Shown in pieces: positions 6,565 to 12,637 of a DNA stretch of 34,402 bases (the first letter of the stretch is position 1; every line of letters starts with the position of its first letter). The translations under genes were made by a program, and so were the position numbers. Where the stretch lies: NCBI GenBank assembly GCA_048884785.1, contig JBHLQM010000035.1, positions 1-34,402 on the forward strand. Reading direction: 5' to 3'. Source of the DNA: Candidatus Thorarchaeota archaeon (lineage in GTDB: Archaea; Asgardarchaeota; Thorarchaeia; Thorarchaeales; Thorarchaeaceae). The notes under the pieces were generated by a model. It ran no database searches, had not been told where the DNA came from, and saw nothing but the letters and a program-made list of their open reading frames with translations.

Positions 6565-7131
6565 ATGGTTGAGTTACCAATGAATCCATTCGCTCCTATT
6601 GAAATGTGGAGCGATACAGTTGTCACCGTTAAAGACGGAGATGAGAAAAAGAATGTTGATGCCAAGCATTACCACGTACGATACGTTGTAGGCGAGGGAA
6701 CGACAAAGAGATATGTTGACCATGGAAGTGGCGTACATGAGATGAATGACCGTACCATCTACTATACACCAGCCGTCCATAAAATGATGGAAGAGCCTTT
6801 CCATTATGATGGTAGCAAAGTAGAGAGTATTGTTGGAGAACGCCACACAGAGAATACAAGGAATCTCGAGAGGATGGACTTCTGTGAGGATCACGAGATT
6901 GTAGAAGTTTCATTTCAGAGCCCAGGAGTTGAGTGTTGTGCCATGACCAGAGAAGAGGCTGATAAACACGGAGTTCCTCTCCAGTTTCAAGCAGGGTACC
7001 TCCTTGGTAGAAGTGATGGCATGATTAAGATAGCACTCTCAAAGACAGTACTTGACAATGGGTCATCCTACTACGAAGCAATCCACATTATACCTGAAAC
7101 CGTTGTGAAGAGTCTACAGTGTCTTGAATAG
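6565..7131 (+). CDS. Hypothetical protein (188 aa, beta-rich)
   Basis: Clean ORF divergent from the upstream gene, preceded by an AT-rich promoter-like region; no firmly recognised family. Confidence 0.7.
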   Translation: MVELPMNPFAPIEMWSDTVVTVKDGDEKKNVDAKHYHVRYVVGEGTTKRYVDHGSGVHEMNDRTIYYTPAVHKMMEEPFHYDGSKVESIVGERHTENTRNLERMDFCEDHEIVEVSFQSPGVECCAMTREEADKHGVPLQFQAGYLLGRSDGMIKIALSKTVLDNGSSYYEAIHIIPETVVKSLQCLE

Positions 7132-7566
7132 CCAGAATTGCTAAATTACTCAGCGTGGGCGCTCTTGATTCATCTCCCTGTTCCAGCCGCCCCTACATGG
7201 CTGGATTTTCCTTTTATTGACGAGCGCCCACCTGACCCATTTTTCTAATTATGAAGAATCTAACACATAACCAAAGGTGTATCATTGCAAATCATTTATT
7301 CGTAGTCGTCCTCACTCATGCACCAAATGACCCCGCTCATTCTCCCTAGGGTAGAATATCCCCCTCGGCACCAATATTCGTCAATGGTAGACTAGTTAGC
7401 GTTTTCAGTACATCCTATAATGACAGAGTAAAGCCAAAGGTCTTGCGTGTCAAAATGACTTTGAGTATGAAACTATATCAATCCAGTAAGTTGCTTCTTG
7501 TATGAGTTATGGATTTATTAGAATCGAATGGCACCCTCCATGTCATCGGTTTCGCGAGGTTGCATT

Positions 7567-8955
7567 ATGAGAGACAAGTTAAGGAAATTAATCAACAATA
7601 CACCATCTGGAGCTCATCTTGAAATCCGGTATCATCAGAGAAAAAGCTCACAGATTAGAGTGGATAAAGGTGAGATACATACTGCAAGCTCCGATGATTA
7701 TGGCGGAGTAGGCATCAGAGCATTAGTGAGAGGAGCTTGGGGATATGCAAGTACAAGTAACCTATCTTTGGATAGCCTCGAAGAAACAATGAATATTGCG
7801 ACCACTGCAGCAAGCAGACTAGCGTCCAGAGTGAAGGAGAAAATTCAGCTTGCTCCAATAACACCAATTACAGGAGAATTTACGAATCTTGGGAAAGACC
7901 CAATGAAGAATCATGATTTCGAGGAGAGAGTCAATCTTGTGATGAGTATCGACAAGATGCTACGTGATGGAGATAAGAGGATAAAGGGTTCAATGGTCAG
8001 ATTACTCGTTCCTTCAAATCACAGGATTATCATTAATTCTGACGGTACTGACGTTGAGATCAAAGATACGCGTCCTGATATCATGATAATACCTGTAGCA
8101 ACGGAAGGAAGCAAGATGGCTGAGCATATCGAAGCAGTTGGCATTACAGGGGGGTGGGAAATCTTTGAAAGAAAGACACCTGAGCAAATGGTCGAGAGAG
8201 CGATTAGAATATCAACGGGGCTTCTTGATGCACCGCTCGCAAAAGGGGGAAAGCACAGAGTCGTAATGGAACCAGGAATAACAGGATTAATCTGTCATGA
8301 GGCAATTGGACATACCGTGGAGGCCGATATTGCACATTCAGGTAGTGCTGCCAAAGGAATGATTGGGGAGAAAGTCGCTAGTGAGCATGTCACTATGATT
8401 GACAGTGGAGAGGAAAAAGCGGCTGGAGGTTGGTTGGTTGTAGATGACGCAGGGGTTCCAGCAAAAAGAACTACAATCATTGAGAAAGGTATACTGAAAT
8501 CATTTCTTCATAGCCGGTCTACGGCTTTCATAGATGGAGTTGAACCCACTGGTAATGAACGTGCGTTTGAATATGATGTGGAACCGATTATTAGAATGCG
8601 AAATACGTATCTGACACCCGGATCGTTCTCACGTGATGAACTAATTGAGGATATCAAAGAAGGCTATCTTTTGGCATCTCCAGGAGGTGGACAGGCAGAT
8701 AGTACTGCCGAATTCATGTTCTCCGTTCCTGAGGCCTATGAGATACGGAACGGCGAAGTCTTGGGACTTGTAAAGAATGTTACAATATCAGGGAATGCAT
8801 ATGAGGTCCTTTCATCTGTTGATGGAGTGTCAAAGGAATGGATGCTCGATATGGGATGGGGTTATTGTGGTAAGGGGCAAATAGCCAGAGTTGATGGCGG
8901 CGGTGGTCTGACACGAGCCACGGCCTTGGTTTCTGGTGAAGTAGGAGGTGCATGA
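7567..8955 (+). CDS. tldD: TldD metalloprotease subunit
   Basis: GVGIR, HEAIGH..EAD zinc motif, PTGN.RA, RMRNT, C-terminal CGK.Q ligand; SD-like GAGGT before ATG 7567. Confidence 0.92.
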   Translation: MRDKLRKLINNTPSGAHLEIRYHQRKSSQIRVDKGEIHTASSDDYGGVGIRALVRGAWGYASTSNLSLDSLEETMNIATTAASRLASRVKEKIQLAPITPITGEFTNLGKDPMKNHDFEERVNLVMSIDKMLRDGDKRIKGSMVRLLVPSNHRIIINSDGTDVEIKDTRPDIMIIPVATEGSKMAEHIEAVGITGGWEIFERKTPEQMVERAIRISTGLLDAPLAKGGKHRVVMEPGITGLICHEAIGHTVEADIAHSGSAAKGMIGEKVASEHVTMIDSGEEKAAGGWLVVDDAGVPAKRTTIIEKGILKSFLHSRSTAFIDGVEPTGNERAFEYDVEPIIRMRNTYLTPGSFSRDELIEDIKEGYLLASPGGGQADSTAEFMFSVPEAYEIRNGEVLGLVKNVTISGNAYEVLSSVDGVSKEWMLDMGWGYCGKGQIARVDGGGGLTRATALVSGEVGGA

Positions 8956-10311
8956 ATGACCAAGGATATTCTCTCTACATTGGCACCTATGATATCAATT
9001 GCCCAGAAAGAAGGAGCTGATGATGTAGAACTCTTTGGTCAGCTGTATCAAGATAGAGAGGTCAATATCGAATCTAATTCTCTAAAGACTTCCATCAGTG
9101 GAATTCAGGAAGGAGTAGGTATTAGAGTCATCATCAATAAATCAGTAGGCTTTACCGCTGTGAACTCACTGGCTAGAGATAGAATCTTGGATGGAATTCG
9201 TGATGCGATCTCAATTGCCAAAGTAACTCCTCCACAGGATTATCATGAATTCCCAGAGAGTGAAGAAACAAGACCAGTAAAGAATCTCTATGATGAAAAA
9301 ATTGTGTCATCAGATATTGGAACAATTACTGAATATGCAGCGGAGTTACTTGAAACCATGCAAGGGATCGATAAGCGATTGACCTTCAATAGCGGTTCCT
9401 TTCTCTCCAGAATTGAACGGCGAGCAATTGTGTCATCGAAAGGAATAGAGGCAAATGAAAGAAAAACAGGGATAAATTGGAGGGTCTTTGGTTGGGCAAT
9501 CGATGGTGACGATATTGGCTCTTTTGAATATGAATCCGACGCAGTGACATCATTGAAGGATTTAGATATTAGTAAAGGTATAGAAAACTTTGCAGCAAAA
9601 GCTTTAGCGAACCTAGGAGCAGTAAAGACAGAAGCATTCAAAGGACCAGCAATCTTTACACCCGAGGCAGTATCTGACCTCCTAACCATCGTTTGCTATG
9701 CAGCGACAGGAACTTCTATTCAAGCAGGAAATAGCTACTTGCAGGATAAGATAGGAGAGAGCGTTGCGATTGAGGACTTCAGCCTCATCGATAACGGAAC
9801 TCTACCAGGGGGTATCTTTAGCCGTTCTTTTGATAGAGAAGGTGTGCCCTCTCAACTTCTAAGAATAGTGGATTCTGGAGTTTTCAAAGGCGTGCTTCAT
9901 AGCGCTTTCACATCCAAGAAGGTTGGACTTTCATCAACAGGTAATGCTTCAGGTGGATTTAGAGTATCTCCATCAATATCAGGAACCAACCTAGAAGTGC
10001 AACCGGGTAATATGACCCTAGACGAAATGATACATGAAGTCAGACATGGTGTATATATCCAACGAATTAGTGCAGCCCCAGATTATACGACTGGAAATTT
10101 CTCAGGTGTAGTCAAAGGAGGGCGTCTCATTAAGGATGGAGAGATACGATCCACACTGAAAGAAATCACTGCAGTAGGTAACATCTTTGATTCACTCAAG
10201 GCAATCTCTGGAATGACGAAAGAACGGAAACACCTCAGAGATATGAGTGCACGTCTGGGAGTATGGCTAGTACCATTCATAAAAGTAGAAAATATTGACT
10301 TCGCGACATAG
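8956..10311 (+). CDS. pmbA: PmbA/TldE non-catalytic subunit
   Basis: GVGIR, FDREGVP, STGNA, TGNFS; no HExxxH; follows tldD with SD GGAGGTG. Confidence 0.9.
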   Translation: MTKDILSTLAPMISIAQKEGADDVELFGQLYQDREVNIESNSLKTSISGIQEGVGIRVIINKSVGFTAVNSLARDRILDGIRDAISIAKVTPPQDYHEFPESEETRPVKNLYDEKIVSSDIGTITEYAAELLETMQGIDKRLTFNSGSFLSRIERRAIVSSKGIEANERKTGINWRVFGWAIDGDDIGSFEYESDAVTSLKDLDISKGIENFAAKALANLGAVKTEAFKGPAIFTPEAVSDLLTIVCYAATGTSIQAGNSYLQDKIGESVAIEDFSLIDNGTLPGGIFSRSFDREGVPSQLLRIVDSGVFKGVLHSAFTSKKVGLSSTGNASGGFRVSPSISGTNLEVQPGNMTLDEMIHEVRHGVYIQRISAAPDYTTGNFSGVVKGGRLIKDGEIRSTLKEITAVGNIFDSLKAISGMTKERKHLRDMSARLGVWLVPFIKVENIDFAT

Positions 10312-10329
10312 TACAAATTATCTCATTGA

Positions 10330-10625
10330 TCTAAATTCAATGAGCCGACTGCTATGACTGGACGACTCTTGAGTCATTTGCGAGTAGTGAAGGCCATGCC
10401 ATGGTAAATGCTGTGGAATTAATGTCTGCGCCGGACATTCTGATGAGTCCGGGGTAATGCGGCGGACAGAAGTCGGGTCCCATCGGAGGAACGATGTTCT
10501 CATGAAGAGGGGCAAAGCTCATGACACTTCGAAGGCCACTGACTCGTCGGACGTTGGTGACAGCAGCCGTGAGAAGGATTGAACACAGAAGTATCTTGTT
10601 GATGTTCACTCATTAGACTTGTAGA
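10330..10625 (+). ncRNA. Putative structured non-coding RNA of unknown class (~290 nt)
   Basis: Intergenic tract, visibly GC-richer than its flanks, tiled by hairpins and closed by a long-range helix (AATGAG 10339-44 / CTCATT 10609-14). G-U pairs and a GUGA tetraloop favour the + strand. No family recognised. Confidence 0.5.
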
Positions 10626-10639
10626 ATTCGGGTCAGAGC

Positions 10640-10654
10640 CAAAGAATTATATAT
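10640..10654 (+). promoter_or_regulatory. BRE/TATA promoter of tfb
   Basis: Purine-rich CAAAGAA followed by TTATATAT about 115 nt upstream of the tfb ATG. Confidence 0.6.
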
Positions 10655-10768
10655 GCGAAAAATACCGCTTGCGGACGCATTTCCCCTCGCAATGCGGTTT
10701 TATCAGGAAATCTGCTGAAGCACATCTCCGGCTGTATAACGAGAGGATTGTACATAGGTGAAGAGAAA

Positions 10769-11710
10769 ATGGCGAAACCAGTCCGTGCGCTAAGTGACAG
10801 GCAAGGCGCTTTTGTTTGCTCCTCTTGTGGAGGCACCGATTTCTACGAAGATCAAACGCGCGGGGAGAGCATCTGCACCTCTTGTGGATGTGTTCTGACA
10901 GACCGCATTGTTGACTCAGGCCCTGAATGGAGAGCTTTTACGGCAGAAGAGAGAAACTCTCGAGCTCGTACAGGTTCCCCTATGACACTAACAATGGCAG
11001 ATAAGGGACTTGCAACGACCATTGGATGGAGTGACAAGGATGCCAATGGTAGAGCCATTGCAGCAAATAATCGTGCAGCAATATATCGAATGAGAAAATG
11101 GCAGATTAGAACTCTCGTTCACAGTTCTCAGCACAGAAATCTTAGTATTGCAATGAGTGAAATGGACCGGCTTACATCACAGCTCGGAGTACCGCATGAA
11201 ACCAAGGAAACTGCGGCTCTTATTTATAGAAAGGCACTTGGAAAGAGATTGGTCCGCGGTCGAAGCATCGAAGGCATGGTTGCAGCTTCAATTTATCTCT
11301 CATGTCGAATTCACAAGATACCAAGACAGCTCGATGAGATAGTAACTGAAGCTAAGGTGAATAGGAAAGAACTTGGTCAGTGCGTTAGACTGGTTCTAAG
11401 AAATGTAGCCATTAAGGTACCAATCCCATCCGCAAATGACCTCATGCCACGAATTTCTGCCGATCTTGCACTAGAGGGTAAGACTGTTCAATGTGCCATG
11501 AATATCATCAACGATGCACGAAATCGCGGTATAACTGCAGGAAAAGATCCTGGTGGTCTTGCGGCCGCAGCTTTGTACATTGCAGGTATTATTGAGAACG
11601 ATAGACGTACTCAACGCGAGATTGCTGAAGCAGCGAATGTGACTGAAGTAACAGTGCGAAATCGCTACAAGGATTTGGCAACGAGCCTCAAGATTACAAT
11701 TAGACCATAG
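10769..11710 (+). CDS. tfb: Transcription initiation factor IIB (TFB), copy 1
   Basis: Zn ribbon CSSC...CTSCG, B-reader GPEWRAF...RARTG, LVRGRSIE, VTEVTVRNRYK; SD AGGTGA before ATG 10769. Confidence 0.96.
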   Translation: MAKPVRALSDRQGAFVCSSCGGTDFYEDQTRGESICTSCGCVLTDRIVDSGPEWRAFTAEERNSRARTGSPMTLTMADKGLATTIGWSDKDANGRAIAANNRAAIYRMRKWQIRTLVHSSQHRNLSIAMSEMDRLTSQLGVPHETKETAALIYRKALGKRLVRGRSIEGMVAASIYLSCRIHKIPRQLDEIVTEAKVNRKELGQCVRLVLRNVAIKVPIPSANDLMPRISADLALEGKTVQCAMNIINDARNRGITAGKDPGGLAAAALYIAGIIENDRRTQREIAEAANVTEVTVRNRYKDLATSLKITIRP

Positions 11711-12546: not shown

Positions 12547-12637
12547 TGGCGGCTCCTCAAGAGAATCGAACTCTAATCGCTTGCACGATCACGGGTTTGA
12601 AGCCCGCGGCCTGAGACCACCCACGCTATGAGGAGCC
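12547..12637 (-). tRNA. selC: tRNA-Sec (anticodon UCA), 91 nt, 9/4 fold, CCA encoded
   Basis: GGCUCCUCA UA GCGUGGG-UGGU-CUCAGGC CGCGGG-CU UCA AA-CCCGUG AUCGU-GCAA-GCGAU U AGAG-UUCGAUU-CUCU UGAGGAGCC G CCA: 9-bp acceptor stem, 7-position D stem, 6-bp anticodon stem, long variable arm, 4-bp T stem, G73. Confidence 0.97.

Follow-up and report, generated by a model that had tools for sequence, protein, structure and literature searches.

What occupies the gap between pmbA and tfb in this Thorarchaeota contig, and does it encode an RNA? The window analyzed here is the whole 34,402-nt stretch of that contig. A preliminary description, made from the sequence alone, had placed between these two genes a large, highly structured RNA, possibly a new large archaeal noncoding RNA (ncRNA), and had called for a search of Rfam, a comparison of its fold with shuffled sequences, a search for covariation among homologues, and an inspection of the minus strand for a codon pattern. 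We found the gap as described and both neighbors correctly named: pmbA occupies positions 8956–10311 (PF19289, 8.8e-57), and tfb begins with an ATG at 10770 (TFIIB match, 6.9e-37). The Sec cluster also lies nearby, with tRNA-Sec at 12547–12637 together with SepSecS and SelB.

A search of positions 10250–10800 against Rfam matched zero families at the gathering threshold and none at E ≤ 10 with relaxed filters. When the window region was searched together with a full copy of the repeat family described below, only chance-level rows were returned (SAM riboswitch, E 1.2; snoZ163, E 5.5), and the full copy itself had no match even at E ≤ 1. Folded as a single sequence, the plus strand reached −91.4 kcal/mol with a z-score of −0.53, 26 of 100 dinucleotide shuffles being equally good, and the minus strand gave a z-score of −1.90; neither value is significant against the shuffles. 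The statement that nearly the whole gap folds is thus not evidence on its own. Since the single-sequence fold is at chance level, the evidence for RNA structure at 10340–10636 comes from homologues only.

We therefore describe the homologues, which were sought in the DNA of 40 related genomes; G000 denotes the assembly containing the window. BLAST matched 10340–10636 to more than 30 copies in relatives. Positions 10344–10612 are multi-copy, at 68–81% identity, in six of them (G001, G003, G006, G009, G011, and G013), and the last ~58 nt of the right end occur in additional genomes. The relatives holding copies are Candidatus Thorarchaeota MAGs. Within G000, the same search returned a single full match, the window copy. 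A profile built without the window matched 10344–10616 in nhmmer with an E-value of 4.6e-65, which excludes an alignment artefact as the source of the family homology.

In most copies, homology extends upstream into an ORF carrying a CxxC...CxxC zinc finger and an NADxNGAxNIG motif. This ORF of the relatives matches PF07282 (5.9e-15), scores 101.3 bits against NF040570 guided_TnpB (cut-off 100), and has Cas12f/TnpB relatives in the PDB; its RuvC-II glutamate is replaced by glycine. In the relatives, the repeated stretch shares its strand with tnpB, overlaps the 3′ part of that gene, and continues as far as the element's right end. This is the place at which the omega RNA (reRNA) is encoded in TnpB systems. 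The tnpB–omega RNA segment common to all copies is ~1.87 kb long, which is also the length of tnpB-only copies, and copies that keep the partner gene described below exceed it. The common segment starts with GTAKGAGTTCA and ends ~25 nt past the TnpB stop, at ...GTTCACTCAC-AATTGTAAGAAATAGGTT. The right-end boundary is sharp, the flanks of the copies differing after ...AGGT(T/C), and among 10 insertions no clear consensus target motif was found 5′ of the left end. On the strength of these alignments, the homology of 10340–10636 to the omega-RNA end of such elements is almost certain.

Two of the relatives also hold mini-elements of ~480 nt, in which the full omega RNA stands between the left end (GTAKGAGTTCA...) and the right end and tnpB is missing. 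Such elements are stand-alone omega RNAs that have been mobilised, found at the following loci:

L002, L004, L027, L029, L030, L032, and L038, in G003 and G006: mini-elements

Beside 11 of ~17 full copies, in relatives only, lies a gene divergent from tnpB that encodes a protein of ~1,695 aa, for example at these loci:

L091:264–5354 (+), in G011: partner gene of ~1,695 aa
L092:6749–11830 (−), in G009: partner gene of ~1,695 aa

Its 56 homologues are all Thorarchaeota "hypothetical" proteins, several per MAG. Searches of Pfam, NCBIfam, PADLOC, the PDB (by sequence and profile), and the ESM Atlas (by features) returned nothing for this protein, and Foldseek was weak, with E about 0.3. A Cas1 fold was revealed only by VIA re-alignment of a structure model covering the first 530 residues (pLDDT 72): residues 3–250 aligned to the Cas1 catalytic domain with a Z of 12.8 and an rmsd of 3.8 over 175 aligned residues. 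The top 28 rows were all Cas1 or casposase entries, the next, unrelated row having a Z of 5.7. The N-terminal ~250 aa of the partner are thus predicted to be Cas1-like. Residues 336–507 carry a D...ExK motif (D396...E418xK420) with a weak resemblance to PD-(D/E)xK nucleases (Z 4–5.7), and the remaining ~1,100 aa had no match.

RNAalifold, applied to an alignment of 21 copies, gave a consensus of 71 pairs in 12 helices, in which 49 pairs show compensatory double changes. With this structure fixed, 93.9% of cells pair, compared with 32–46% after the 3′ partners were slid by 1–3 columns, and 0 of 500 shuffles reached the observed pairing values. Several pairs are predominantly G-U, which assigns the RNA to the tnpB strand; the plus-strand G-U bias first noticed in the window's own letters is therefore a real property of the family. 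The conserved features fall in the window as follows:

10348–10388 (+): helices 2 and 3, ACTGC/GTAGT (10348–52/10384–88) enclosing a hairpin (10360–67/10372–79)
10398–10404 (+): 3′ arm of helix 1, GCCATGG; the truncation removed the matching 5′ arm
10411–10588 (+): helix 4, long-range, CTGTG (10411–15) with CACAG (10584–88)
10604–10612 (+): GTTCACTCA motif, conserved loop of the right-end hairpin, sequence read directly

Across the family, compensatory changes affect 5 of 5 pairs in helix 2 and 6 of 7 in helix 3. Helix 4 is almost invariant in sequence among the 21 copies, three of its five pairs never varying, and it encloses the core multi-helix domain of helices 5–12, each of which is 88–100% paired with 2–8 covarying pairs. 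The GTTCACTCA motif and the right-end hairpin, a covarying stem of 10–13 bp, are each present in most copies. The variable stretch preceding GTTCACTCA is the 5′ arm of this hairpin, and the two arms covary around the conserved loop (e.g., L057:3190–3250).

The helices drawn in the preliminary description coincide with this consensus only in part, and most of them are not the conserved ones. Both ACTGC/GTAGT and GTTG/CAGC (10553–56/10561–64) agree with covariation-supported helices, and a hairpin drawn at 10360–79 roughly matches the conserved one. The 3′ arm TGAG was also recognized correctly as an arm, but its true partner is CTCA at 10518–21 and not the one drawn. The remaining proposals CCATGGT/GCTGTGG, AATGTCTG/CGGACATT, GTCCG/CGGAC, and CATCG/CGATG contradict conserved pairings.

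In most copies no stop interrupts the TnpB frame over ~400 nt of omega RNA; the frame ends inside the right-end hairpin (e.g., L055:1501–3231). Diversity by codon position is 0.203/0.205/0.202 in the RNA part (last 270 nt), compared with 0.16/0.13/0.42–0.51 in the TnpB core. This absence of codon periodicity indicates selection on the RNA and not on the TnpB protein tail, and the extension of the frame through the omega RNA appears to be tolerated rather than selected. It also bears out the earlier view that the ORFs in the region are noise, as they show no protein constraint. Judged from the family alignment, 10340–10636 is the descendant of a real, large, highly structured plus-strand RNA that has no Rfam family.

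The window copy itself is incomplete, and its limits are as follows:

10312–10339 (+): 3′ flank of pmbA, outside the element; the sequence 3′ of pmbA at another locus in G005 is 85% identical
10340–10636 (+): what is left of a Cas1-TnpB element, namely its 5′-truncated omega RNA (reRNA) scaffold and its right end
10631–10636 (+): last conserved right-end bases, GGGTCA, where conservation among copies stops

Homology to the family starts at 10340–10344, inside helix 1. Five of the seven pairs of this helix are broken in the window, the relatives' 5′ arm CCGTGGC being replaced by junction sequence. Also missing are tnpB, the left end, and the helices that lie farther upstream, with ~150 nt of 5′ RNA gone in all; a search for left-end homology at 10250–10345 found none. 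Homology of the 28-nt pmbA flank to G005 ends at 10339. Two further elements of the preliminary description, a "terminal helix" AATGAG/CTCATT and a switch-like "competing hairpin" CTCATTGA/TCAATGAG, straddle this junction between the conserved pmbA flank and the remnant, and both are therefore accidental. At the other side, the boundary lies at 10636, with host tfb-upstream homology from 10637–10640.

The window copy keeps 60 of the 71 consensus pairs, compared with 64–70 in the other copies except the most divergent, L011, which keeps 52. Leaving helix 1 aside, 58 of 64 interior pairs are intact. No right-end hairpin forms in this copy, which sits on a long terminal branch (0.239). Nine substitutions occur in it alone, and of the five in paired columns three keep the pair; given these and the mostly intact interior, neutral decay of the interior is not demonstrated. 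Because the left end and the 5′ RNA are missing, the window copy is, by its sequence, a broken copy and not a mobilisable mini-element. We consider it very probable that 10340–10636 (+) is a decayed, 5′-truncated orphan omega RNA with the right end of a Thorarchaeota Cas1-TnpB transposon family, and probable, to a slightly lesser degree, that it is inert in G000. Most likely, the remnant is at most transcribed passively as a 3′ tail of pmbA.

Two further 5′-truncated right-end fragments of the same omega-RNA family are present in G000, at C16:14429–14546 and C25:42296–42355 (nhmmer, 4.4e-15 and 1.4e-6, respectively). The C25 fragment ends ...ATTCGGGTCAGA, as the window copy does. The retention of these other right-end fragments means that the 3′-end pattern could have a functional reason. 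That they and the orphan fragment are kept for a function without a full TnpB, such as influencing tfb or pmbA expression, nevertheless strikes us as very unlikely.

Among the other explanations, the one that survives best is a functional stand-alone omega RNA, used in trans by a TnpB that is unassembled or extrachromosomal, with a guide matching the DNA upstream of tfb. Most interior helices of the window copy are intact, relatives carry the mobilised ~480-nt mini-elements, and stand-alone omega RNAs working in trans have been documented (PMC10691335). However, searches of G000 detected no TnpB, whatever the family: those with the family protein, PF07282, NF040570, PF01385, and tblastn found none, and a TnpB-family HMM run on all G000 ORFs found no related protein even at E ≤ 10. 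The same family protein query finds 4–16 copies in five relatives. The Cas1-like partner was likewise not found in G000. TnpB may have been missed, because this assembly comprises 158 contigs at 91% completeness and repeated elements are often unassembled in draft genomes. The window copy has nonetheless lost the left end, the 5′ helices, and the right-end hairpin beside the guide position; 5′-trimmed omega RNAs can still function in other TnpB systems. On balance, a trans-acting role seems improbable.

A second alternative is that the remnant was exapted by the host, serving either tldD-pmbA, as a structure in the 3′ UTR, or the tfb promoter ~10 nt downstream, as a cis element. Its position fits this idea: the pmbA stop is 28 nt before it, and the TATA-like box of tfb follows directly. 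The setting is as follows:

7240–10636 (+): 3.4-kb block consisting of 290 nt, tldD, pmbA, and the remnant, missing at this site in G001–G005
10637–10700 (+): tfb promoter region and conserved leader, with a TATA-like TTATATAT at 10647–54; by analogy, the would-be guide position of the omega RNA

Comparison with five congeners (G001–G005) argues against exaptation, as the remnant is missing from the tfb upstream region in all five and from the pmbA 3′ flank in G005. Identity to G002, G004, and G005 is 77–79% over ~760 nt from 10640 into tfb, and the tfb upstream block alone is also found in G001 and G003. In this block of the congeners, a conserved word, ACCGCTTGCGG, comes after the TATA-like TTATATAT and may be an operator or leader element. 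A metagenome scan with an 18-mer spanning the right-end/tfb junction gave 17 exact matches, none of them homologous beyond the word itself, so the scan supplied no orthologous copy in which selection could be gauged. With no orthologue showing selection and no TnpB-related protein for the remnant to serve in G000, we regard exaptation as a very slight possibility.

The same comparison bears on the setting of the remnant beside tfb. In G001–G005, an 85-nt element (window 7153–7235) lies 30–135 nt from the tfb-upstream block, compared with 3.4 kb in G000, where tldD occupies 7528–8955; in G005, tldD-pmbA is on another contig, at 71% identity. The right end of the element is thus also the right breakpoint of a rearrangement. 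We rejected the idea that tldD-pmbA was cargo inside the element, as no left end was found at the left edge of the block (7200–7560).

The 85-nt element is itself a conserved plus-strand hairpin, followed by a T-run, whose large internal loop does not vary; it lies just 3′ of the ORF at 6565–7131. It is single-copy in all seven genomes of the genus and in two genomes of a second genus, compensatory changes affect 10 of its 22 pairs, and a match in Rfam was not found. Of the two, this element and not the remnant at 10340–10636 is the stronger candidate for a host ncRNA that has not been described.

A new housekeeping-type large archaeal ncRNA, the third alternative, would account for the missing Rfam match, the size of ~300 nt, and the strong family covariation. 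In the relatives, however, the sequence is multi-copy, TnpB-linked, and mobile; the family is patchy within the genus, three of six congeners being without it, and the locus is not conserved. The preliminary description had rightly set aside SRP and RNase P RNA: neither model matched in the region, and both RNAs were located elsewhere in G000, SRP RNA at C19:35561–35871 (+) (RF01857, 91.3 bits) and RNase P RNA at C48:6076–6411 (RF00373, 162 bits). We therefore give the housekeeping explanation hardly any weight, and what was proposed as a possibly new large archaeal ncRNA is instead the omega-RNA and right-end part of a TnpB mobile element. The SRP RNA of G000 spans the whole archaeal model, yet its score falls just short of the 96.5 that Rfam sets for gathering, and annotation with default settings would pass it over.

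Finally, the idea of a minus-strand gene for a small protein (10352–10609, 85 aa) can be dismissed almost entirely: the ORF exists and the minus strand is open in some relatives too, but it has no Pfam match, substitutions show no three-base periodicity or other codon pattern, and the compensatory pairs that are G-U on the plus strand would become A-C when read from the opposite one.

We thus return to a decayed omega RNA and right end as the preferred reading. In intact elements, the RNA would be transcribed with or from the 3′ end of tnpB and fold into a multi-helix scaffold bound by TnpB. As its 3′ guide it would carry the sequence immediately beyond the right end, and the nuclease would cut sites that had lost the element. 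This guide mechanism is established in other TnpB systems, and we infer by analogy that it operates in the Thorarchaeota family as well. In G000, such an element would have lost tnpB with its Cas1-like partner, its left end, and the 5′-most third of the RNA, leaving a remnant at the breakpoint of the rearrangement that presumably placed tldD-pmbA beside the tfb promoter.

Read in this way, what looked like a new large archaeal ncRNA is explained as transposon debris, and a false lead is set aside. As modest by-products, the analysis provides a covariation-supported 12-helix fold for the omega RNA of Asgard Cas1-TnpB elements; it accounts for the "hypervariable" stretch before GTTCACTCA as one arm of a hairpin; and it identifies an element end that marks a 3.4-kb rearrangement beside the tfb promoter. 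None of these opens a long-standing question.

Omega RNAs (reRNAs) of TnpB, the OMEGA systems exemplified by ISDra2, have been known as a kind since 2021 (Altae-Tran et al. 2021 and Karvelis et al. 2021, as cited in PMC10691335). Like them, the family described here overlaps the 3′ end of tnpB and reaches the right end of the element in the relatives, and it has a conserved multi-helix scaffold with conservation dropping at the would-be guide start. Its scaffold is long, ~400 nt in full copies, and lies wholly inside the open, unconstrained extension of the TnpB frame; its sequence resembles none of the described omega RNAs, and Rfam has no model for it. The window copy differs from an omega RNA in lacking tnpB, the left end, and the 5′ scaffold. 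It resembles stand-alone omega RNAs and mini-elements (cf. MITEs/PATEs) in being without tnpB, but unlike the mini-elements it has neither the left end (GTAKGAGTTCA...) nor ~150 nt of 5′ RNA. The sotRNAs of haloarchaeal IS200/IS605 elements (RF02656/RF02657), which overlap the tnpB 3′ end in sense and are now read as omega RNAs (PMC12558985), differ from the family in phylum and transposon type, and no Rfam match to them was found.

The closest known systems are the Asgard Cas1 (aCas1)-associated TnpB loci, catalogued in 2023 by Altae-Tran et al. as groups Cas1H-Asgard-1 and -2 (PMC10691335), where Makarova et al. 2020 is cited. Their downstream region has been described as containing a conserved GTTCACTCA behind a variable stretch that was suggested as a possible guide (PMC10691335). 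The family shares with them an Asgard host (Thorarchaeota), GTTCACTCA downstream of tnpB after a variable stretch, and a divergent partner with a predicted Cas1-like fold. The change of the RuvC-II glutamate to glycine in the relatives' TnpB is likewise that of the "rearranged" groups in PMC10691335. In our alignment, the stretch before GTTCACTCA is a covarying hairpin arm and not an evident guide, and the window holds a fragment only. By motif, partner fold, and RuvC-II change, rather than by tree placement, the family matches the Asgard aCas1-TnpB loci.
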